Origin: Candidatus Phycocordibacter aenigmaticus
Lineage (GTDB): Bacteria; Patescibacteriota; Minisyncoccia; Phycocordibacterales; Phycocordibacteraceae
Assembly: GCA_045401115.1 (NCBI GenBank)
Contig: CP174359.1
Span: forward strand, 419,247 to 483,246
Direction: 5' to 3'
Length of the DNA: 64,000 nucleotides
The position numbers and the translations under genes were made by a program. Below, piece after piece: positions 3,136 to 30,243 of this stretch. Below the pieces are notes generated by a model that did no database searches, had not been told where the DNA came from, and worked only from the letters and a program-made list of their open reading frames with translations. Positions within the stretch are counted from its first letter, which is position 1, and each line of letters begins with the position of its first letter.

Positions 3136-3245
3136 TAACATTTTGAAACTGTGCGATATCCACATAGGCACGCATAAAATCAATGCGGAGAGCAGTAAAT
3201 GCTATACTAGAGGGGTACTATAACTATAGATAATATAAAAACATT

Positions 3246-3533
3246 ATGACAACGTTAAATGATATTTTGCAAACTATCGCTGGCTTAATTGACCTTGCAA
3301 CACCAATTGTGGTTGCTCTTGCACTGCTGTACTTCTTCTGGGGTCTTGCGCAGTACATCCTTAATGCAGGCGATGAGAACAAGAAGAAAGAAGGTCGTGA
3401 AATCATGATCTGGGGCATTATTGCTCTCTTCGTTATGGTTTCTATCTGGGGTATTGTAAACGTCATCCAAGACACGTTTGACCTTCGTGGCGGTACTATT
3501 GAAGTGCCACAAGTTGAGACCAACAATAGGTAA
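3246..3533 (+). CDS. T4SS-pilin-like small membrane protein (paralog)
   Basis: Motif FFWGLAQYILNAGDENKKKEGREIMIWGIIALF; own RBS/AT-rich promoter. Confidence 0.5.
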   Translation: MTTLNDILQTIAGLIDLATPIVVALALLYFFWGLAQYILNAGDENKKKEGREIMIWGIIALFVMVSIWGIVNVIQDTFDLRGGTIEVPQVETNNR

Positions 3534-3538
3534 ACTGT

Positions 3539-3751
3539 GTGAGTGAGGAACAGTATACAGGAAATGAAAAAGACGTAACGCCTGCAAATGCGCTCGGAAG
3601 ACTTTCTGAGCGTACGCAGGCGTCTCGTTTTACCGGATTACTTATCGCGTTGGTGTTGGTTTTTGTATTAGCGCTTTTAATCGGTTTAGTGGTACGAGGT
3701 GTCACGGGTAAGGAAAATGTCCCTGAAGTACCACGTGTCAATCAACAATAA
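3539..3751 (+). CDS. small single-TM hypothetical protein
   Basis: 70-aa ORF with one hydrophobic helix between pilin-like genes; no homolog recognised. Confidence 0.25.
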   Translation: MSEEQYTGNEKDVTPANALGRLSERTQASRFTGLLIALVLVFVLALLIGLVVRGVTGKENVPEVPRVNQQ

Positions 3752-4114: not shown

Positions 4115-4198
4115 GGGCGAGTGGCGGAATTGGTAGACGCGCGTGGCTTAGGACCACGTATCTTCGGATGTGGAGGTTCGAGTCCTCTCTCGCCCACA
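4115..4198 (+). tRNA. tRNA-Leu (anticodon TAG), type II
   Basis: Acceptor GGGCGAG/CTCGCCC, D-arm GGAATTGGTAGAC, anticodon loop CTTAGGA, long variable arm, T-arm GGAGGTTCGAGTCCTCT. Confidence 0.8.
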
Positions 4199-4252
4199 AA
4201 ATTTAAAATCCTCAAAGTGTAAGCTTTGGGGATTTTTAAATTGCATAGAGGC

Positions 4253-4380
4253 GAAGAGGACTCGAAAGACGGAGGCGGTATACAAGACGAACGAAGTGAG
4301 TGCTTGTCGCCGAGGCCGGGCAGGAGGTCCTTATGCGCGTAAGCGAATTAGGAACCTGACGCCGAGCCTCTCTCGCCCAC
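4253..4380 (+). repeat. tRNA-3'-associated structured element, family A (copy A1, at tRNA-Leu-TAG); terminator follows at 4381..4422
   Basis: Begins AGAGGACTCGAA (inverted copy of the tRNA T-arm); conserved core AGACGGAGGCGG..CCGGGCAGGAGGTCCTTATG..CGAATTAGGAACCTGACGCCGAG; ends CCTCTCTCGCCCAC (direct copy of tRNA 3' end); the 25-nt tRNA trailer and terminator are also duplicated. Confidence 0.55.
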
Positions 4381-4495
4381 AAAATTTAAAACCTCAGAGT
4401 GTGAGCTCTGGGGATTTTTATATTTCGTAGAGGGGGAGAGGAATGGCTACAAATAAATAAACCGCACACGAGGAGTGCGCGGTTTATTTATTTTG

Positions 4496-4578
4496 TGCCG
4501 GGAGTGGGACTCGAACCCACACGGCCGAACGGCCCGGGGATTTTAAGTCCCCTATGTCTACCATTCCATCACCCCGGC
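4496..4578 (-). tRNA. tRNA-Leu (anticodon TAA), type II
   Basis: Revcomp gives acceptor GCCGGGG, anticodon loop CTTAAAA, long variable arm, T-arm GTGGGTTCGAGTCCCAC. Confidence 0.8.
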
Positions 4579-4753
4579 AAGGGATTAAGATACAACATGC
4601 TAGTATCTAGTGTATTGTATCTTGGCCTGCCACTGGAGCAAGCTTTGCTTACCTCGGTAAAGAACTAAATAAAACAGACTGTAATGTTCTATTTTTATTA
4701 TATCCAAGATAAGCAATTCTTATCTTGGCAGCGTCAACACTTGTGTGTCAGCT

Positions 4754-4827
4754 GGAGGCCACGGCGGGAATCGAACCCGCGCATCGAGGTTTTGCAGACC
4801 CCTGTGTTTCCACTTCACCACGTGGCC
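4754..4827 (-). tRNA. tRNA-Cys (anticodon GCA), CCA encoded
   Basis: Revcomp: acceptor GGCCACG, anticodon loop CTGCAAA, T-arm GCGGGTTCGATTCCCGC, 3' CGTGGCC-T-CCA. Confidence 0.8.
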
Positions 4828-5227
4828 AATATCAACAAGAATACTACGATATAGAGCATAAACAAAGAGGGCTATAAAAAATGGAATTAATTTGCTAGAG
4901 TATGCAGTATCGCCTATGAGAGATATCTTATGGGTGATCACTACCGCCTGGAAGAAAAATCTTGCAGGCGGGGCGTGGTAACATAATGCGCTCATCCTTT
5001 TGCTTCACAGCAACAAGAAAGTAAGTAAAACTTTCTTTCGGCGAAGGTTCGAGTATAAAAAATATTTTATACTCCTCACTCTTCTTGAAAGTAAACAAGC
5101 TTCCTTTCTTGTCTTGTTCGCAAAAGACGCGCATTATCGTGAAGCACTACCGCCTGTAAGAGAAATCTTTCAGACGTTCATTTCGGAGATAATGTGAAAG
5201 CAAGCTTTCTCGTTATCCTCCTCAATT

Positions 5228-5299
5228 CCGCCTGTAGCTCAATGGTAGAGCAGCGGCCTTTTAAGCCGTTGGTTGAAGGTTCGAGTCCTTCCGGGCGGA
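5228..5299 (+). tRNA. tRNA-Lys (anticodon TTT)
   Basis: Acceptor CCGCCTG/CGGGCGG, D-arm GCTCAATGGTAGAGC, anticodon loop CTTTTAA, T-arm GAAGGTTCGAGTCCTTC. Confidence 0.8.
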
Positions 5300-5336
5300 C
5301 ACGTTTTAAAAACAGCATCCCATGCTGTTTTTTTCG

Positions 5337-5473
5337 TGCCGCCCGGAAGGACTCGAACCAGAAAGGGGGTCGGGGGAACTGGGTGTTCCCCCGTGGAGGA
5401 GGTTACACGGAACCGTGGGTTCCGTGAGCGCAGGTGAGAATACACCGAGCAGTGAGATTCCTAGTGGGCGGAC
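5337..5473 (+). repeat. tRNA-3'-associated structured element, family B (copy B1, at tRNA-Lys)
   Basis: Begins GCCGCCCGGAAGGACTCGAACC (inverted copy of tRNA-Lys 3' end); core AGGGGGTCGGGGG-hairpin-CCCCCGTGGAGGAGG, CGGAACCGTGGGTTCCG hairpin, TGAGCGCAG, GAGCAGTGAGATTCC; ends in degenerate direct copy ..GGGCGGAC; hairpin terminator follows. Confidence 0.55.
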
Positions 5474-5710
5474 TTGATAGGAAAAAGCAAACTGCTTTGC
5501 TTTTTCCGATACAAGTCCGAGGCGGAGGCATGTTTCATTTTTGCTGCAGTTCATGGCAAAAATGAAAAGCCGAGCCGTGGTCAAGCGCACTTAGTAGATT
5601 TCAAGCGAAGCGAAGAAATATACTTAGTGACGGGTGACGATATGATAAAAATGATTTATATACGCCTGTAAATTTGAAACCATAAAATAAAACACTTCGT
5701 TTAAAGTGTT

Positions 5711-6027: not shown

Positions 6028-7545
6028 CTATGATTCTTTGGTACGTGTTTCAATATAATCACCTCCAGTAATATCAGCTTTCGATTCAATTTGGGCACCA
6101 AATTCGGCTCCTTCGCTGACGCTCGACACATCTGATTTCTGTGTTTGAACATTAAGCACTTTTCCATGTCCCACATCAATATCACGACGTTTAATAATTA
6201 CTGAGGCACCGCGTTCAATTGTCCCGCTTTCTACGCGACCACCAACCACATGCTTTGAGCCAGTAGTAGAGAAGTGTTTTAATATTTTTGCGTTTCCCGT
6301 CACAATAATTTCTGGTTCTTTTGGGGCAATACGTTCAACCTCTGTGTGCAACCAATCAACTAGTTCATAGATAATCTCTTTACTTTCAAGACGTACGTTA
6401 TTTCGTTCTGCTAAATCTTTTGCTGATGAATCAACTTTTACATTAAATCCGGCAATTATTGAATCTTCAAAACCAACGAGTTGCTTTACGTCATTTTCAG
6501 AAATAGCACCCACACCTATATCAGCAATAATGAGCCGAGCATTTTCTTGTGGCATTTTATCAAGCTCATACTGTAACGCTTCAATTGATCCGGCAGTATC
6601 TGCCTTTAAAATAATACGAATTGGTTTTTTAGTGTCCTGAGCATCATGAACATTTTGTGCCGGCAGTGGCGGTTCACCTGCTGCAGCAGCAGCCTCTGCT
6701 TCTTTTTTACTTTTTACTACATACATTTCACTACCCACGCGCGGTTCTTTGGAAAAACCTATAATTTTTGCCGGTTGACCACATGATATTTCTTTTACTT
6801 TCTCCCCAAGGGTATTTTCAATAATTCGCAGTGGAGCAAACGCATCATCAGCAACGGCAAATGAACCTGCAGAAAAAGTTCCATCACGTACAACAACTGT
6901 TGCGGCAACACCGCTTTTTGGATCACGGCTTGATTCAATAACTACCGCGCGCGGTGGAAGACTTGTATCGCAGTGAATATCTTCAAGATCGGTTACTAAG
7001 AGGATGATATCCAAAAGTTCATCAATACCTTCACCTGTTTTTGATGAAACTGCCACGTGAGGCACTGAACCACCAAGGCCTTCAAGGTAAATTCCTTCTT
7101 TCATGACCGTCTCTTTCGCGTGATTGAGATTTGCGTTTTCTTTATCTATTTTAGTAAACGCAACGATATATGGAATATCAGCTTTAGTAATTGCGTTCCA
7201 TGCCTCAATTGTCTGTGGTTTTACTCCGTCGTCAGCAGCGACAACAAGAATAGCAATATCGGCGGCTGAGGCTCCACGGCGACGCATTTCCTGGAATGCT
7301 TCGTGTCCCGGGGTGTCAATAAAAGAAATAGCGCGCGCAGCTCCTTCTTTAGGGGTATGGTTAAGTTCATAGGCGGAAATTCCTTGAGTGATACCTCCTG
7401 TTTCTCCTTCGGCTACTTTTGCCTTTCGGATATAGTCTAAGAGTGACGTCTTTCCGTGATCAATGTGTCCAACAACAGCGACGACGGGCTGTACTCTTTT
7501 CTTTGATGTAGGTGTTTTAGGCATAATTAATCCTAAGCAAAACAC
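6028..7545 (-). CDS. infB: translation initiation factor IF-2 (short form, no long N-terminal domain)
   Basis: G-domain VGHIDHGKTSLLD, DTPGHEAF, NKIDK; beta-barrel and C2 domains; true start probably MPKTP at 7524. Confidence 0.85.
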   Translation of the reverse strand: MFCLGLIMPKTPTSKKRVQPVVAVVGHIDHGKTSLLDYIRKAKVAEGETGGITQGISAYELNHTPKEGAARAISFIDTPGHEAFQEMRRRGASAADIAILVVAADDGVKPQTIEAWNAITKADIPYIVAFTKIDKENANLNHAKETVMKEGIYLEGLGGSVPHVAVSSKTGEGIDELLDIILLVTDLEDIHCDTSLPPRAVVIESSRDPKSGVAATVVVRDGTFSAGSFAVADDAFAPLRIIENTLGEKVKEISCGQPAKIIGFSKEPRVGSEMYVVKSKKEAEAAAAAGEPPLPAQNVHDAQDTKKPIRIILKADTAGSIEALQYELDKMPQENARLIIADIGVGAISENDVKQLVGFEDSIIAGFNVKVDSSAKDLAERNNVRLESKEIIYELVDWLHTEVERIAPKEPEIIVTGNAKILKHFSTTGSKHVVGGRVESGTIERGASVIIKRRDIDVGHGKVLNVQTQKSDVSSVSEGAEFGAQIESKADITGGDYIETRTKES

Positions 7546-7599
7546 GTAACTGCTTGAAAAGCAATAAGGACATTCTTATGTGCACCTGACAAGGGCGCT

Positions 7600-8100
7600 T
7601 TATGAAAGTGATTGTCGAGCTTGTTTGATTACTTGATTTTCTTCATCTGACAATTCGCGTTCAGATGTAAATGTTTTAACTTCTTTAGCATAGACTCGTA
7701 CGCCGTCACGTGAATGGATGCCAGACAACACTATCCCGTTACCTCCCTCATTAACCAAGGCAGCAACAAAACTTTGTTGCCCACCTGCGTTTTGGAAAGG
7801 ATCAAAATGTGTAAGTGCAACACCACGCACACTATGCGCTAAACGACCATCGACATTTTCAAGTGCACGTTCAGTCGTTTGTGCGTGTGATTCAAGTTGT
7901 CCTACTCGAGTTTCAAGGCTCACAATTATATCTTCAAGCGATGTTCCGCTTTTTCCTTTAGTTAAACGATTAATGCGAATGTTTAAAAAAATAACGCAAA
8001 TAAGTAGCACAATACCGATGATGCTGAGCGCCAAAAGTACCGGCTTATTTTGAACTACATATAGGAAATAATTGAACGCGGTGTCGACGTATTCATTCAT
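7600..8100 (-). CDS. DUF4446-like membrane-anchored protein
   Basis: N-terminal TM helix; coiled segment; motif LTHFDPFQNAGGQQSF...VRVYAKEV typical of DUF4446 family (recognition by memory, moderate). Confidence 0.4.
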   Translation of the reverse strand: MNEYVDTAFNYFLYVVQNKPVLLALSIIGIVLLICVIFLNIRINRLTKGKSGTSLEDIIVSLETRVGQLESHAQTTERALENVDGRLAHSVRGVALTHFDPFQNAGGQQSFVAALVNEGGNGIVLSGIHSRDGVRVYAKEVKTFTSERELSDEENQVIKQARQSLS

Positions 8101-13168: not shown

Positions 13169-13251
13169 GCGTCGGTGGCAGAGCGGTCAAATGCATCAGA
13201 CTGTAAATCTGACGACTTTAGTCTACGCTGGTTCGAATCCAGCCCGGCGCA
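13169..13251 (+). tRNA. tRNA-Tyr (anticodon GTA), type II
   Basis: Acceptor GCGTCGG/CCGGCGC, anticodon loop CTGTAAA, long variable arm, T-arm GCTGGTTCGAATCCAGC. Confidence 0.8.
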
Positions 13252-13296
13252 CAAATTAAAAACTCGAGCTTTTGCTCGGGTTTTTAATTTGTTGCA

Positions 13297-13435
13297 TGCC
13301 GTGAGCAGGATTCGAACCCGTAGGGGGTCGGGGGCGGCGGAACGCCCCCGTGGAGGAGTTAGGCCGTAGGCCGACATAGAACCGCGGGTTCTATGAGCGC
13401 AGCGAAGCGAGCAGTGAGATTCCAGCCCGGCGCAC
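13297..13435 (+). repeat. tRNA-3'-associated structured element, family B (copy B2, at tRNA-Tyr)
   Basis: Imperfect inverted copy GAGCAGGATTCGAACC; core GTAGGGGGTCGGGGG..CCCCCGTGGAGGAG, TAGAACCGCGGGTTCTA hairpin, TGAGCGCAG, GAGCAGTGAGATTCC; ends in direct copy AGCCCGGCGCAC; terminator 13446..13475. Confidence 0.55.
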
Positions 13436-13483
13436 TGTGAATGTTAAAGCCCAACCAATTTGGTTGGGCTTTTTTACATTCAC

Positions 13484-13615
13484 GCGCCGGGCTGGATTCG
13501 AAAGAAGAGGGGGTCGGGGAGAGGATAGTCTCCCCGTGGAGGAGGCTACACGGAACCGTGGGTTCCGTGAGCGCAGGCGAGAATACGCCGAGTAGTGAGA
13601 TCCCAGCCCGGTACA
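13484..13615 (+). repeat. tRNA-3'-associated structured element, family B (copy B3, tandem to B2)
   Basis: Begins GCGCCGGGCTGGATTCGAA = exact reverse complement of tRNA-Tyr 3' end; same core as B1/B2; ends in diverged direct copy TCCCAGCCCGGTACA; terminator 13621..13652. Confidence 0.55.
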
Positions 13616-13712
13616 TCTCCATAAACGGCTCACCCCACTGAGCCGTTTATTTCGTTGGGGAAAGCTTCACAGAGAGGCTTTGGAAGGCATTTTACGCGTG
13701 TATAATGGCCTT

Positions 13713-14720
13713 ATGAAGAGTTTTTTCATAGTGGGAGCCGTAATAGTTTTGTTCGTCCTCCCGTTGAGCGCACTCGCTTCGAATCATTTTACTAGCGACG
13801 GGTTTTCTTTGGTACCAGAAGTTGTCCGCAATATAACCAACCCTCAGGCGGTACAAGCATGTGACCTCGTAACGTTGATAGATAACATAGTAAGTTTTGC
13901 TACATATATTGCAGTATTTATTGCGACTATTATGTTTGCCTATGCTGGGTTCCTCTATGTTACAGCGGCATCGCGCCCAGAAAACCTCAATCAAGCAAAA
14001 GGTATTTTTGGTAAAGTATTTCTCGGGCTCATTCTTGTGCTTGGGGCATGGCTCATTATTAACTTAGTGATGTCTGTGCTGTTCAATGATGATATTGGCG
14101 GTAATTGGACGTCTTTAGGAGATTGCGGTGAACGACTAGAATTTAATCCTGAGGACTATGCGCCAGTTAATCCTGGTGTAAACACATATGTGCCGGACGA
14201 TCCTTATGATCTTGACCAGCGACGTGAAGCTGATTTAAGGGATTGGTTTGCGAGTTGTTATGTAGGAGTGAAAGATGTGAGCTCTACAAGGGTGAGTGGT
14301 ACGAGTGACGCAGCTGCAGTGTATGCCTGCGACCTTAAAAGAGATTGTGAAGCCACTCTTGGAGACAACACTCCACGTGATAGGACTCAGCCAGTTGATA
14401 TACATGATGACGACTCGGGAGTGTGCGGTATTGTAATCACCGGCGGCTCTGAAGGTGGTCATGCTGGTGGCACTCGCCCCGGTTCACATGGTGCTGGCGA
14501 TAAGCTCGATTTTCGAGTAACAGCAACTTTACAAAGTTACATCCAAGCACAGGAAGACGCAGGTCGCTTTACTCCTGTAGAGCCGCCGAGTTTTGGTGAT
14601 AGACAGTGGGTGGATACTGAAACAAACGCTGTGTGGACCCTAGAAGATGAGGGTGGGTCTAATCAGCATTATGATGTGTGTATAGAAAATTGCCGTACTC
14701 CATCTGCACAAGGCTCTTGA
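13713..14720 (+). CDS. T4SS-pilin-like N-terminal module fused to ~230-aa Cys/Asp-rich extracellular domain
   Basis: N-terminus (signal peptide, ATYIAVFIATIMFAYAGFLYV..ENLNQAKGIFGKVFLGLILVLGAWLI) matches the pilin-like family at 2477-4021; long C-terminal extension unique. Confidence 0.4.
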   Translation: MKSFFIVGAVIVLFVLPLSALASNHFTSDGFSLVPEVVRNITNPQAVQACDLVTLIDNIVSFATYIAVFIATIMFAYAGFLYVTAASRPENLNQAKGIFGKVFLGLILVLGAWLIINLVMSVLFNDDIGGNWTSLGDCGERLEFNPEDYAPVNPGVNTYVPDDPYDLDQRREADLRDWFASCYVGVKDVSSTRVSGTSDAAAVYACDLKRDCEATLGDNTPRDRTQPVDIHDDDSGVCGIVITGGSEGGHAGGTRPGSHGAGDKLDFRVTATLQSYIQAQEDAGRFTPVEPPSFGDRQWVDTETNAVWTLEDEGGSNQHYDVCIENCRTPSAQGS

Positions 14721-14752
14721 CCCGCTACTCACTTTAGGATACAGTATCTTTC

Positions 14753-14914
14753 ATGTCACAAGATAATCTCATAAAGCTTAAATCAAGCGCTACTGGTCGC
14801 ATTATTTGGACCCGAAAGAATAGAAAGAAATTGGCAAATGCACCAAAGCTTGAACTTAAGAAGTACGATCCAGCCGTGCGTAAACACGTAGTATATAAAG
14901 AAACAAAGAAATAA
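14753..14914 (+). CDS. rpmG: 50S ribosomal protein L33 (missed by ORF track, 53 aa)
   Basis: [53 protein letters not shown] matches L33 consensus (..[25 protein letters not shown]); RBS-like AGGAT upstream; terminator hairpin 14940..14972 follows. Confidence 0.7.
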
Positions 14915-15029
14915 GCTTTTTGTATATTTGTATTTTTTAAAAAACCGCCATACATATGGCGGTTTTTTAAAATAGGGAAGCCTCCCGCCTGTATGCAAAA
15001 ACAGTGCGCAGGCACTGTTTTTTGTCAGG

Positions 15030-15100
15030 CGGGCCCACTAGGATTCGAACCTAGATCGACGGTTTTGGAGACCGTTATTCTGCCATTGAACTATAGGCCC
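15030..15100 (-). tRNA. tRNA-Trp (anticodon CCA)
   Basis: Revcomp: acceptor GGGCCTA/TGGGCCC, anticodon stem ACGGT/ACCGT loop CTCCAAA, T-arm CTAGGTTCGAATCCTAG. Confidence 0.8.
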
Positions 15101-15156
15101 AGCTCAGGACAAGTGTACTGTAAAATGCTTCTTTTTAAAAGCGTTGTATCTGAATG

Positions 15157-16074
15157 CTATTTTGCAAGGAAGTCTTCTATAAGCGCCTTCGCCTTCTTTG
15201 TTTCAGAAGGATTGATCCATATAATCTCTTCGTTGCGTTTCAACCATGTCATTTGTCGTTTAGCATACTGTTTTGTTGCCTGCTCGAGTTCCTGGACCAT
15301 TTCATCATATGAAAGGGTGCCGACAAGGTGTCGTGCCATATACCGGTACTCAAGACCAAGCTCTTCCATGCGGTCATAGGAAAGTCCGCTCGCATGAAGG
15401 TTTATTGCTTCTTGAAGCATATCCTCCTTTTCGAGGCGTTCCATCAGTCTAGTATGAATACGTTCATGGAGGGTTTGTTGAGGATGAGAGATACCGATCC
15501 ATAACGTCTCGTAGATGGCGTCTTTTTGAGGTGGTGGATTTTTACCAAGTGCTTCAACAATTTCAATAGCACGAATCAGCCGGCGGGGATTCTTTTGGTC
15601 AATGGTCTCAAACCGCTCCGGGTCTTTATGTCTTAAGACCTCCTGTAGTTGTTCGGTTGTGTATGTTTCTAATTTTGTACGTAAGGTTTCATTTGGTGGT
15701 GCGTCAGCAATCGAAGTGTATCCCAAAAGCGCATCAATATAGAATCCTGTCCCGCCGGCGATAATAGGCACCTTTTCACGCGCAAAAATATCCTCAATCG
15801 CTTCTCGACCTTTTTGCACGAATTCTGATGCGGTGAACACCTGCTGCGGGCTGACAACATCAAGGAGGTGATGTGGTACGCCGTCCATTTCCTTCTCAGT
15901 GACCTTACCTGATCCAATATCCAAACCTCGGTATACTTGCCGGGAATCCGCAGAAATTACCTCTCCGTTATATTCTTTGGCAAGAGTGATTGAAAGAGAG
16001 GTTTTTCCAGATGCGGTTGGGCCAACCACACACACGACTTTTCTTTTTTCCATAGATGCACTATACCGCTTCAA
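15157..16074 (-). CDS. miaA: tRNA dimethylallyltransferase
   Basis: P-loop VVCVVGPTASGKTSLSI, DSRQVYRGLDIGSGK, IPP-transferase fold length. Confidence 0.85.
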   Translation of the reverse strand: MKRYSASMEKRKVVCVVGPTASGKTSLSITLAKEYNGEVISADSRQVYRGLDIGSGKVTEKEMDGVPHHLLDVVSPQQVFTASEFVQKGREAIEDIFAREKVPIIAGGTGFYIDALLGYTSIADAPPNETLRTKLETYTTEQLQEVLRHKDPERFETIDQKNPRRLIRAIEIVEALGKNPPPQKDAIYETLWIGISHPQQTLHERIHTRLMERLEKEDMLQEAINLHASGLSYDRMEELGLEYRYMARHLVGTLSYDEMVQELEQATKQYAKRQMTWLKRNEEIIWINPSETKKAKALIEDFLAK

Positions 16075-16151
16075 GACGTTTCTAAAAACCCATTTCAGAA
16101 AATCAAAAAAATTGGTACCATAGAGAGAGAATAATAATATATATAATCAAT

Positions 16152-16790
16152 ATGAATCATCATACAGATACAGAAGAGGACACTGTCGGCTTTACGCAGA
16201 TGGTAAAAGTAGGGCATCCTGTACCGGATATCGAATTCGAAGTGTATCAGAATGAAGAAATAAAAAAGACTCGTTTTGGAGATTATAAAGGAAAGTGGAT
16301 TATCCTTTTCTTTTATCCTGCCGACTTTACGTTTGTATGTCCAACTGAACTTGAAGAGCTTGCTGATTGCTATGAAGAATGTAAAGGTCTTGATACTGAA
16401 GTTATTAGTGTTTCAAGTGATACCGTGTTTACGCATAAAGCATGGCATGATGCATCAAAAGCAATAGGAAAGATTACTTTCCCTATGGCAGCAGATCCCG
16501 CAGCACGACTTTCTGTAGCATTTGGTACGTATGTTGAAGGAGACTCATTTAATCATACTGATGATGAGGGATTGTCCCTACGCGGTACGTTCATTATTGA
16601 TCCAGATGGTATTTTACGAACCATGGAAATTCATGACAATTCCATTGGACGATCTGCTCATGAGTTAGTGCGTAAATTAAAAGCAGCACAGTTTGTCCGT
16701 AAAAATGGTGGACAAGTATGTCCTGCTAGTTGGGAAGAAGGAGACGATACGCTTAAAGGAGGTGATCTTGATTTAGTTGGAAAGATTTAA
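16152..16790 (+). CDS. peroxiredoxin (AhpC/TSA family, 2-Cys)
   Basis: FFYPADFTFVCPTELEEL peroxidatic Cys motif; resolving Cys near C-terminus (VCPASWEEG). Confidence 0.8.
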   Translation: MNHHTDTEEDTVGFTQMVKVGHPVPDIEFEVYQNEEIKKTRFGDYKGKWIILFFYPADFTFVCPTELEELADCYEECKGLDTEVISVSSDTVFTHKAWHDASKAIGKITFPMAADPAARLSVAFGTYVEGDSFNHTDDEGLSLRGTFIIDPDGILRTMEIHDNSIGRSAHELVRKLKAAQFVRKNGGQVCPASWEEGDDTLKGGDLDLVGKI

Positions 16791-16811
16791 AAGATTTACT
16801 TTTGTAACAGT

Positions 16812-16844
16812 AAAAAAACGGCTCACTGTAGTGAGCCGTTTTTT
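16812..16844. terminator. bidirectional rho-independent terminator, AAACGGCTCA..TGAGCCGTTT family
   Basis: AAAAAAACGGCTCACTGTAGTGAGCCGTTTTTT; perfect palindrome with flanking A/T runs. Confidence 0.7.
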
Positions 16845-16886
16845 GTATGGCTGAGGTGGGGCCGTCCCGGAATAGCGGACTTTTTG

Positions 16887-17035
16887 CTGCACAGAGTTGG
16901 AGTCGGCGTCAGCTCACATCGCTATAATTGTTCGCTCCACTCCAATTCTAGCGTGTGGCTCCTGCCCGGACTCGCCGACAAGCACTCGCTCTCGCTCGTC
17001 TTGTGTACCGGCTCCGTCTTTCGACTCCCATCTGG
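16887..17035 (-). repeat. tRNA-3'-associated structured element, family A (copy A4, at tRNA-Leu-CAA, minus strand)
   Basis: Read on minus strand downstream of tRNA-Leu(CAA): inverted copy CCAGATGGGAGTCGAA, core AGACGGAGCCGGTACACAAGACGAGCGAG..GAGTGCTTGTCGGCGAGTCCGGGCAGGAG..GCTGACGCCGAC, ends in diverged direct copy TCCAACTCTGTGCAGC; ~85% identical to A1 core with compensatory changes in the hairpin. Confidence 0.55.
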
Positions 17036-17088
17036 TTGCGACAAATAAAAATCACCGCACACTTTCGTGTACGGTTCATTTATTTTGT

Positions 17089-17169
17089 GCCCAGAGTGGG
17101 AGTCGAACCCACATCCCCGAAGAGACACGATTTTGAGTCGTGCGCGTATACCAATTCCGCCATCTGGGC
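17089..17169 (-). tRNA. tRNA-Leu (anticodon CAA), type II
   Basis: Revcomp: acceptor GCCCAGA/TCTGGGC, anticodon stem CACGA loop CTCAAAA, long variable arm, T-arm GTGGGTTCGACTCCCAC. Confidence 0.8.
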
Positions 17170-29381: not shown

Positions 29382-29558
29382 TAGATGGAAGGTGGGAGCT
29401 TCGCTTGAAATTAAAGAAGAATTTGGACAGACACTAAAATAGTGTATATTCTAGAACAGGTCTAATGGCGAGGTTGCTTGCAGTGTTAGCCTATTCAATG
29501 AGGTCCAAGAATTTCTTGGATACCCAGTAGGTATATTGTATAGTTCTAAAGTATTCAA

Positions 29559-29629
29559 TCCGGGATCGTCTAATGGCAGGACGCTTGGTTTTGGTCCAAG
29601 AAATTGGGGTTCGAGTCCCTGTCCCGGAA
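29559..29629 (+). tRNA. tRNA-Gln (anticodon TTG)
   Basis: Acceptor TCCGGGA/TCCCGGA, D-arm GTCTAATGGCAGGAC, anticodon stem CTTGG/CCAAG loop TTTTGGT, T-loop TTCGAGT. Confidence 0.7.
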
Positions 29630-29681
29630 CTAGGTTACGTTACACACCCGATACGAGAGTATCGGGTGTTTACGTACACCT

Positions 29682-29844
29682 TTCCGGGACAGGGACTCGA
29701 AAGACGGAAGCGCAGGGCTCCCGTTGTGCTGAGTTATATGCACAATGGGAACGCTGAGTCCGGGCAGGAGGTCGTTATGAGTTTTCATGCCGGCAGGCAG
29801 GCAAAACGAATTACGAACCTGACGCCGAGTCCCTGTCCCGGAAC
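29682..29844 (+). repeat. tRNA-3'-associated structured element, family A (copy A2, at tRNA-Gln); hairpin terminator 29845..29880
   Basis: Begins TTCCGGGACAGGGACTCGAA = exact reverse complement of tRNA-Gln 3' end; core AGACGGAAGCG..hairpin..GAGTCCGGGCAGGAGGTCGTTATG..CGAATTACGAACCTGACGCCGAG; ends GAGTCCCTGTCCCGGAAC (direct copy from mid T-loop). Confidence 0.55.
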
Positions 29845-29912
29845 TAGAAAGAAAAGCCGCTTTCAGCGGCTTTTCTTAGTTCCGGAGACAAGAACGGTGC
29901 CTGCGCACCGTT

Positions 29913-30051
29913 CGGGGGACTCGAACCGCCGGAGGCATGTCGCGCGCAGCGGAGCGAGCACGAAGCCGAGGCGTGGCCCGCGGTCGTTATGAATATTTTC
30001 TGAAAGAAAATATGAATTACGAACCATCAGGCTCTAGCCCTGTCCCGGAAC
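29913..30051 (+). repeat. tRNA-3'-associated structured element, family A (copy A3, tandem to A2, more diverged); two terminators 30054..30082 and 30088..30120
   Basis: Begins GGGGGACTCGAACC, contains GCCGGAGGC.., GGTCGTTATG, ..GAATTACGAACC.., ends CCCTGTCCCGGAAC direct copy. Confidence 0.5.
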
Positions 30052-30243
30052 AAAATAAACGGCTCACCCAGGTGAGCCGTTCTTTGCTAAACGGCTCAGT
30101 GCACTGAGCTGTTTATTTTTTAAATAAAAATCAAAAATGTGATGCTTTAAAGAAAGAGATTTTTGAGGTGGCTGGGTTACCTCTAAAAACAGTGCCAGTT
30201 GGGTCGAATTTTGCGTTAGCGATCAATGAAATTGTGGGGTAAC

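Follow-up and report, generated by a model that had tools for sequence, protein, structure and literature searches.

Structured RNA units framed by copies of tRNA 3' ends in Patescibacteria share the design of the enterobacterial RtT RNA

Introduction

Why should a tRNA gene be followed by tandem repeats, each of which opens with an inverted copy of the tRNA 3' end and closes with a direct copy of it? The question is raised by the tRNA-Gln gene in a 64,000-nucleotide (nt) stretch of the genome of Candidatus Phycocordibacter aenigmaticus, a member of the Patescibacteria, or Candidate Phyla Radiation (CPR) (assembly GCA_045401115.1, contig CP174359.1, positions 419,247 to 483,246). This whole stretch is called the window below, and coordinates refer to it unless another locus is named. 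A preliminary description had reported four related units behind tRNA genes of the window, and had suggested a small-RNA family, a tRNA mimic or a miniature mobile element. The feature is more extensive than first described. The units represent a new RNA family, in fact several families, absent from Rfam. They are a new relative, in design, of the RtT RNA of Escherichia coli, which makes them a previously undescribed family and not a wholly unknown kind of element.

Anatomy of the units

The same layout can be followed at each locus: a tRNA, whose 3' end is termed X; a hairpin, S; an inverted copy of X, termed X'; the core; a direct copy of X starting at C56 of the T-loop; and a further hairpin. 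Such a cassette measures ~200 nt, of which ~95-125 nt belong to a conserved two-domain RNA core, and X runs from C56 to the discriminator base. Two units, A2 and A3, follow tRNA-Gln in tandem. The source of X is there the 3' part of the tRNA gene from C56 together with four trailer bases (29612-29633), and a repeat finder returned it as an exact 22-nt direct repeat at 29826-29847, with a third copy of 68% identity at 30033-30054. The same search gave a 20-nt inverted repeat, in which tRNA positions 54-73 (29610-29629) are 100% complementary to 29682-29701; A2 does therefore begin, as first described, with the exact reverse complement of the tRNA 3' end. Within A2 itself, X' (29682-29699) and X (29826-29843) are also 100% complementary, and the first C of X pairs within helix P3 of the core. 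The hairpin S2, which follows A2, forms a palindrome with X' of A3.

The window contains three copies of the core motif CCGGGCAGGAG where 0.27 would be expected, a count reached by none of 100 shuffles, and alignment of the four units first noted bears out a shared core. The repeat finder, this enrichment and the unit alignment agree that the X', core, X architecture behind tRNAs is real. The four family-A copies were all recovered; the original count missed a fifth family-A-type unit and three units of a second family, B, which places a different core in the same X'...X frame. Eight tRNA genes are recognized in the window by ARAGORN and Rfam, and five of them carry units.

A covariance model built from family A (model R1) found A1, A2 and A4 with E-values of 1e-19 to 1e-23. 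A3 is indeed more diverged, as had been noticed, and it belongs to a sister subfamily, the A-variant, with the unit at 5519-5638 and units of six other genomes. Alignment of the A-variant units predicts the closing stem as well as helices P1a, P1b and P3, with compensatory change at 15 of 18 pairs. Since these helices are kept by compensation, A3 is diverged and not degenerate.

A conserved RNA core

The structure of the family-A core was analyzed on a 41-sequence model alignment with a refined secondary structure, using shuffles and sliding of the pairing partners as controls. Paired cells amount to 91% in the observed alignment, compared with 70% after shuffling and 31-38% with partners slid. 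Changes on both sides are seen for 23 of the 26 pairs, the covariation score is 0.483 versus ~0.06-0.11 with partners slid, and none of 500 shuffles attained the observed values. The family-A core is a genuine structured RNA, which agrees with the initial impression that the repeats were no random scar.

From 5' to 3', the core is composed of GAAA, P1a, a GGA/GA internal loop, the P1b hairpin, CG, P3, AGG, P2 and GAC. P1a is GAC/GUC, covarying to GGC/GCC and ACC/GGU; P3 is GGC/GCC, its final C being C56 of X; and P2 (CACUUA/UUAGUG) is a sequence-conserved stem with a U.U mismatch and a bulged A. RNAalifold proposed another register for P1a, CGGA/UCCG, which was dropped in favor of GAC/GUC because the GGC/GCC and ACC/GGU variants compensate in the latter register alone. 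The folded strand is the tRNA-sense strand, on which G.U pairs outnumber A.C pairs by 48 to 16.

The core sequence is conserved between distant CPR classes. The conserved AGUCCGGGC (GAG-UCCGGGC, e.g. 29756-29768) resembles the universally conserved P4 strand of bacterial RNase P RNA (GGAAAGUCCGGGC). This likeness is probably fortuitous, since these core bases pair in P1a and P3; a likeness of 9 nt between GAGUCCGGGC and the P4 region is treated as a coincidence. Hammerhead, HDV-like (hepatitis delta virus) and group I readings of the core were ruled out by the junction topology, the missing conserved nucleotides and the lack of any Rfam match.

Copying and pairing of the tRNA 3' end

The direct copy starts in the T-loop, as proposed earlier, more precisely at C56, and the junction lies between positions 55 and 56 instead of near 58. 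X is exact from C56 in 16 of 30 loci. X' consists of X inverted plus the first trailer bases; it extends to T54/T55, and to G52 in some subfamilies, and crosses the junction by 2-4 nt. Identity is highest over the T-loop/T-stem zone (86%), lowest over the acceptor zone (65%) and intermediate over the trailer zone (79%). The X'/X duplex has a stability of -21.1 kcal/mol with its own partner, compared with -12.8 kcal/mol with the X of another locus. At the inner ten positions, 8.6 out of 10 are paired; the outer acceptor part pairs modestly above control (p = 0.002) and is truly intact in about one-third of the units. The long terminal helix put forward in the preliminary description is complete in A2, alone among the window units, and most of the 34 family members keep the inner 8-10 base pairs (bp) only. 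The closing stem X'/X is recovered when units are folded in isolation. A hairpin placed between the acceptor and T-stem parts of X' gives a tRNA-like four-way shape in A3 and at locus L070, as judged by folding, and at locus L049, as judged by sequence.

Orthologous loci show how these copies evolve. In L011, L015 and L037 the tRNA-Asp loci are orthologous across tRNA, hairpin, X', core and X, with compensatory changes in the hairpin. The three tRNA-Asp differ in their acceptor and T stems, and the downstream X matches its own tRNA at 19/19, 18/19 and 19/19 positions, respectively; X' tracks the lineage substitutions in the T zone only. X is thus kept in step with the tRNA of each lineage, by conversion or by selection.

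Distribution behind tRNA-like genes

A scan for the motif pattern GAAAGACGGA-N30-60-CCGGGCAGGAG, run over a single genome of each species, returned 51 loci. About 26 of them also hold a third motif, (C)TGACGCC, which was outside the query, and all 26 three-motif loci belong to Patescibacteria (Paceibacteria, Saccharibacteria, Kaiserbacteria, Vogelbacteria, UBA3458 and ARS1360). The other loci are chance matches in unrelated taxa. Within the motif-scan loci, R1 picked up additional copies that had not been selected by motif. The cassette family is apparently specific to Patescibacteria. The same architecture in ~26 independent assemblies, including the complete chromosome OZ253947.1, shows that the repeats are not an assembly artefact.

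In these related CPR genomes the core recurs almost always 3' of a tRNA or of transfer-messenger RNA (tmRNA), and once behind ftsZ. It begins typically 58-70 nt (range 41-94) past the tRNA gene in ~30 of 34 loci, and the cores at tRNA loci are always oriented as the tRNA. At least 15 isotypes are concerned: Tyr, Glu, His, Asp, Thr, Ser, Gly, Arg, Leu, Met, Gln, Cys, Pro, Phe and Trp. At locus L039 (1998-2589), a family-A unit with an X copied from the 3' end of tmRNA lies 65 nt past the tmRNA gene, which implies that the elements follow tRNA-like 3' ends generally. A unit of locus L044 (~3230-3580) follows an RNA with a tRNA-like T-arm and acceptor 3' end, called neither by ARAGORN nor by Rfam; the interior of this upstream RNA (AGAGACUA, GAUAUAGUCC) resembles, by eye, a group I intron of the kind reported for tRNAs of Patescibacteria (PMC13011429).

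The ftsZ case, at locus L014 (5675-5940), has no tRNA. The family-A core is followed there by an exact 37-nt copy of the ftsZ end, from the last 12 codons to the stop codon, and the stop is TAG in one copy and TAA in the other. The spacer contains an 11/12 inverted copy of the target sequence, across the junction, and locus L007 is the ortholog of this ftsZ site without the insert.

Other cores were seen in the same frame. Arrays at L049 (3663-4200) and L051 (845-480, minus strand) alternate family A with other core types, all framed by copies of the same tRNA 3' end; examples of these other cores are GACCUUGCCUAGC... (L049) and an A-variant-like one (L051).

Comparison with RtT RNA and other known systems

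The preliminary description knew of no element with such an architecture. One does exist: in RtT RNA (rttR; RF00391), inverted and direct copies of the tRNA-Tyr 3' end close a structured core. At the E. coli tyrT locus, each repeat holds GGGGAAGGAT, the inverted complement of ATCCTTCCCC within the direct copy AATCCTTCCCCCACCACCA. In the RF00391 consensus these segments form the closing stem GgGaaGGA/UCCuuCcC round the core, and ccaCCACCA is left as a tail. RtT is found as 178-nt tandem units behind tyrT/tyrV, with a closing stem that uses a 19-nt tRNA-Tyr copy; it occupies 1-9 places per E. coli genome, with matches in 4700 of 5426 genomes. According to Rfam and the older literature, RtT RNA is reportedly released from the tyrT transcript. 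A single repeat of the tyrT operon is stated to be its origin (PMC3318445), and an involvement in transcript processing and the stringent response has been suggested (bioRxiv 10.1101/2024.07.17.603846).

The parallels concern position as well as construction. Both RtT and the CPR units lie directly behind a tRNA and in its orientation, as tandem units of ~180-210 nt whose core starts ~70 nt past the tRNA. At the end of each unit, 19 nt repeat the tRNA 3' end directly, from within the T-loop onward, while an upstream inverted copy closes a structured core and leaves the acceptor 3' strand as a tail. Copy number or presence differs between strains in both cases. The core topology is different, however, with two side-by-side hairpin domains in the CPR units and one long interrupted stem with two hairpins in RtT. 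RtT is found behind tRNA-Tyr only, whereas CPR units follow many tRNAs and tmRNA. In contrast to RtT, a hairpin separates the tRNA from X' in the CPR units, their X' begins as an inverted copy of the full length of X plus trailer, and CCA is not encoded.

No sequence or covariance-model similarity could be detected in either direction. RF00391 gave no match to the window units at E<=10 (29500-30200) or at E<=1 (4190-5660 and 13250-17090), although it scores 133-138 bits on E. coli tyrT as a positive control, and R1 gave no match to RtT. From the shared architecture and the lack of any cross-match between models, the CPR elements share the RtT design and are not members of RF00391.

Two classes of mobile DNA offer partial likenesses. 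Islands and prophages inserted by integrases at the tRNA T-loop also show a direct repeat of the 3' end from the T-loop, a gene restored by the inserted copy and a variable presence. The CPR insert differs by its size (~200 nt), the absence of an integrase, the inverted copy, the covarying core and its absence from phage and plasmid records. Integron attC sites and the CTX attP(+) site likewise conserve structure over sequence, with conserved bulges, within-genome homogeneity and arrays, and genes lie between units at L037. The CPR units differ in having two hairpin domains, no GTTRRRY/RYYYAAC boxes and flanks that are target copies; no IntI or Xer link is shown.

tRNA mimicry is known to set RNA ends through RNase P, RNase Z and the CCA-adding enzyme in mascRNA (MALAT1), plant tRNA-snoRNA dicistrons and viral tRNA-like structures. 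These handles are eukaryotic or viral, consist of a full cloverleaf and are not built from a copy of the neighboring tRNA.

Gain, loss and homogenization

Presence varies between relatives, as can be seen from empty and filled tRNA-Gln sites. The order dnaX then tRNA-Gln is syntenic in metagenomic relatives; a look-up of the exact protein encoded by the neighboring dnaX gene gave no record. The site behind tRNA-Gln is empty in the eight closest relatives examined, and an A-variant unit occupies it in L067 and L070. Because these two loci hold an A-variant there, and because A2 has perfect flanks and its own S1, A3 is probably old and A2 a later addition. Units were found at 2 of 40 tRNAs in the dnaX-anchored relatives; in the loci holding family A, 22 of 56 tRNAs have full units and 14 more have partial ones. 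Partial tRNA duplications of another kind, which begin in the D-arm or the anticodon arm and extend as far as the 3' end, were seen behind tRNA-Gln in L068 (6131+), L108 (4362+) and L115 (3808+). They are att footprints of the classical integrase type and have no relation to the structured units.

ARS1360 contains eight nearly identical cores behind different tRNAs. The identity ends exactly at the core edges, and X and X' are degraded, which points to homogenization of cores within the genome and not to fresh insertion. At L037, a 196-nt block (trailer, hairpin, X', core and X) is present at 5421-5616 and 7416-7611 with 99% identity. The two blocks flank a 1.8-kilobase (kb) insert with three small genes, for an unknown protein of 233 amino acids, a YdjM-like protein and a SET-domain protein. 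Each of these genes has a similar promoter-like upstream repeat, and the insert looks like cargo caught between two units.

Other units and tRNA genes of the window

The features of the window are collected in Table 1. At the tRNA-Leu(TAG) locus, the tRNA end and hairpin (4184-4258) recur past A1 at 4367-4440, with 82-100% identity. The 60 nt past A1 (4381-4440) correspond to the trailer of the tRNA, the hairpin and the beginning of X' (82% identity) and stop before any core; they are thus the remnant or the start of another tandem unit. The family-B core, GGGGGUCGGGG ... CCCCGUGGAGGAG ... GUGAGCGCAG ... AGUGAGA, was seen in this window only among the loci fetched, and family B gave no match in Rfam. 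Two tRNAs that carry no unit, Trp and Leu-TAA, are followed by terminator hairpins (15028-14960 and 4495-4440, both on the minus strand) whose stems reach the last 6-8 nt of the acceptor strand. They could represent a precursor state of the palindrome made of X, hairpin and X'.

Table 1. Coordinates of tRNA genes, units and their parts in the window, with the evidence for each (CM, covariance model)
Feature	Position	Strand	Evidence
tRNA-Gln(TTG)	29559-29630	+	ARAGORN, Rfam
Hairpin S1, between tRNA-Gln and A2	29641-29672	+	centre of the long palindrome X, S1, X'
X' of A2	29682-29701	+	tRNA positions 54-73 inverted, 20/20 complementary
A2 core (GAAAGACGGA ... CTGACGCC), helices P1a/P1b and P3/P2	29699-29826	+	CM R1 80.7 bits, E 5e-19; covariation
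X of A2	29826-29847	+	direct copy of tRNA 3' end from C56, 22/22
Hairpin S2, outer X' of A3 (TTCCGG, 29880-29885) and inserted hairpin (29892-29913)	29848-29913	+	sequence; fold
Unit A3: inner X' 29914-29927, A-variant core ~29928-30034, X 30033-30054 (68%)	29914-30054	+	fold, alignment, repeats
Two terminal hairpins of the Gln array; second 30088-30115, then T run	30056-30121	+	consensus terminator scan
tRNA-Leu(TAG)	4115-4197	+	ARAGORN, Rfam
Unit A1: X' 4246-4265, core 4264-4363, X 4363-4381	4246-4381	+	CM R1, repeats
tRNA-Leu(CAA)	17087-17169	-	ARAGORN, Rfam
Unit A4: X' 17021-17039, core 16905-17022, X 16887-16906 (16/19)	16887-17039	-	CM R1, X copy
Fifth family-A-type unit (A-variant), second unit behind tRNA-Lys, X decayed	5519-5638	+	CM R1 E 0.047; A-variant alignment
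Three family-B units, behind tRNA-Lys (one unit) and tRNA-Tyr (two)	5336-5473; 13292-13435; 13482-13615		same X'...X frame

Searches for enzymes, carriers and known families

Rfam searches of all units, at gathering and at permissive thresholds, returned the tRNAs and spurious hairpin or microRNA matches only. Literature on CPR tRNA-linked RNAs yielded only anticodon-loop group I introns (PMC13011429) and TIGR-Tas (PMC12045711), neither of which is related. No protein family recurs near the units at the 26 loci beyond housekeeping synteny, and no recombinase, transposase or reverse transcriptase was found there. A Pfam scan of 36 of the 52 open reading frames (ORFs) of the window gave housekeeping or unknown proteins, with no recombinase, reverse transcriptase or TnpB; the lack of a recombinase had already been remarked upon in the first account. 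The genes of the L037 insert have no recombinase domain either. No unit copies were found in IMG/VR (two motif scans), or in GenBank phages and PLSDB plasmids (blastn).

Several known kinds of element were considered. A direct repeat of the tRNA 3' end flanks the insert, as in integrase-borne islands, and no tyrosine or serine integrase adjoins the att-like repeat at the 26 loci, in the 36 window ORFs or in the L037 insert. A miniature inverted-repeat transposable element does not fit, as the inverted ends are locus-specific tRNA copies and not constant, and the duplication is of variable length, from 19 to ~75 nt. A core followed by 19 locus-specific nt at its 3' side fits the guide layout of IS200/IS605 PATE (palindrome-associated transposable elements)/omega-RNA; the left flank, however, derives from the tRNA as an inverted copy, and neither TnpA nor TnpB was found in the window or the loci. 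A TnpB-style homing guide, with X as guide and GGTT as adjacent motif, was dropped because the rebuilt tRNA keeps both motif and protospacer and would hence be self-targeted. Introns of groups I and II and known self-cleaving ribozymes gave no Rfam match, and the base before X is C in family A and A in family B. Integron attC sites, or clusters of attC sites lacking integron-integrases (CALIN), were set aside in view of the two hairpin domains with closing stem and the lack of RYYYAAC/GTTRRRY boxes in the alignment.

What the units may be

Among the three explanations first offered, the data fit best an RtT-like trailer RNA with tRNA mimicry. The units would be trailer RNAs of tRNA operons, co-transcribed with the tRNA and shaped by mimicry of it, a tentative reading to which we give a probability of about 45%. 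It starts from observed features: the anatomy of the units, their conserved structure, their orientation, the absence of internal promoters and an X that co-evolves with the tRNA. No promoter-like site was found between tRNA and units, and one is located immediately upstream of tRNA-Gln. The first account had ascribed to each unit its own terminator; a terminator consensus scan flagged two hairpins only, the last one of the Gln array and the second one at the Leu(TAG) locus. Transcription starting at the tRNA promoter would read through the hairpin behind the tRNA, and the normal maturation enzymes would cut out the tRNA. In the remaining trailer, X' would pair with X, over the inner 8-10 bp that are always kept and over up to 18-20 bp in young copies such as A2. 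This pairing would close the core to a three-way junction, with the tRNA acceptor 3' strand as its 3' end. Since this end is identical to that of the tRNA, the same 3'-processing machinery could define and stabilize a discrete RNA of ~130-160 nt, whose conserved internal loops probably serve to bind some conserved partner. As for the DNA, where the scheme is partly documented, recombination or duplication at the X repeats would account for the gain, loss and arraying of units. Cores would be homogenized within a genome and X held identical to the tRNA by conversion or selection.

Several points weigh against this reading. Most hairpins between tRNA and unit look like real intrinsic terminators, with a G+C stem followed by 4-6 T, so that read-through would be a minority event. 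The acceptor part of X' is decayed in most copies compared with the T zone, and the complete acceptor/T minihelix that RNase P would need is present in some units only. X and X' of ARS1360 are degraded despite nearly identical cores, and the distribution is patchy, as the low count in the dnaX-anchored relatives illustrates. tRNA mimicry does not explain the ftsZ unit with its duplicated gene end. Since RtT itself has no established function, the analogy carries architecture and not mechanism.

Mobility of the units is plausible, though unproven, and a miniature non-autonomous integrative element, which we regard as a serious though less likely rival, would account for much of the DNA-level evidence. 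A circle of ~190-215 nt (X, hairpin, X' and core) would recombine at its core/X junction with the tRNA T-loop (T55/C56), so that the X of the element rebuilds the tRNA and the chromosomal X is shifted 3' of the core. The X/X' hairpin and the core, the latter folded as single-stranded DNA (ssDNA) or RNA, would serve as recognition site or guide for a recombinase acting in trans, or for recombination driven by homology once DNA has been taken up; DprA is encoded in the window. The order tRNA, X, hairpin, X', core, X is the exact product of integrating such a circle, and empty sites exist in the closest dnaX/tRNA-Gln relatives. A2, with its perfect X' and X and its own S1, next to an older S2 that pairs with X' of A3, is also accommodated, as are the ftsZ duplication reaching exactly to the stop codon, the L037 blocks on either side of the three-gene insert, the near-identity of the eight ARS1360 cores up to their edges and the guide-like overshoot of X' by 2-4 nt. 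Nevertheless, no recombinase, transposase or reverse transcriptase was found at the loci or in the ORFs scanned, nor any copy in the phage and plasmid collections searched; units persist at orthologous loci across species; and hairpins differ among units with near-identical cores. The ARS1360 flanks being old, core similarity is there better explained by gene conversion, and a circle with X for one tRNA cannot restore a different tRNA. A broader proposal, which seems distinctly unlikely, takes the cassettes and the E. coli RtT together as self-propagating elements that hit the T-loop of tRNA-like genes by base pairing and need no recombinase. X' would be the guide across 55/56, the core a catalytic or protein-recruiting scaffold, and the displaced X the regenerated target.

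Two further proposals place the function in the transcript. A cis switch on tRNA maturation would have X' pair either with the tRNA 3' half, in a very stable extended hairpin that unfolds the tRNA, or with the downstream decoy X, while the core senses a ligand or protein. It would explain why X' and X both match the local tRNA and why different cores occur in one frame, and the minimum-free-energy fold of the whole operon does pair X' with the tRNA X. Such a switch is judged quite improbable: the tRNA has already folded when X' comes to be transcribed, most loci have a decayed acceptor part in X', the units are dispensable in close relatives, the ftsZ unit does not fit and no riboswitch family of Rfam matches. 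An intron-like insertion in the T-loop, with X, hairpin, X' and core removed from a read-through RNA, the downstream X as alternative 3' exon and X' as guide, is given very little credence: the upstream tRNA gene is already complete, neither a terminal G nor a U.G pair is present at the would-be splice sites, no intron family of group I or II and no ribozyme family matches, and many downstream X copies carry tRNA-breaking indels. It would be in line with the co-evolution of the downstream X with the acceptor stem at orthologous loci, which the acceptor part of X' does not share, and with the spanning of the 55/56 junction by X'. Patescibacteria are moreover unusually rich in tRNA introns, of group I and in the anticodon loop (PMC13011429). 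Finally, direct repeats of tRNA 3' ends are the classical integrase footprint, and true partial-tRNA duplications exist in L068, L108 and L115, which could suggest non-functional scars (att duplications of lost prophages or islands) or assembly artefacts. Compensatory covariation in the core, its sequence conservation across distant CPR classes and the recurrence of units in independent assemblies make this hardly credible.

Implications

tRNA-based island finders will take these repeats for att sites, which calls for caution, and the new RNA family is currently missed by annotation pipelines. The covariation, orthologous loci and empty sites gathered here provide a comparative data set for work on function. 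If the units were mobile, they would target tRNA genes without a recombinase; if the joint reading of cassettes and RtT held, an RNA- or ssDNA-guided integration or intron-like system not yet described would be at work. RtT has been an isolated enterobacterial curiosity, without established function, since the 1980s-90s. An RtT-like design in the very distant, genome-reduced Patescibacteria, with several unrelated cores, a place behind most tRNA isotypes and a tmRNA, and one core that is shared by different CPR classes, suggests a general solution that was either repeatedly invented or is very old.

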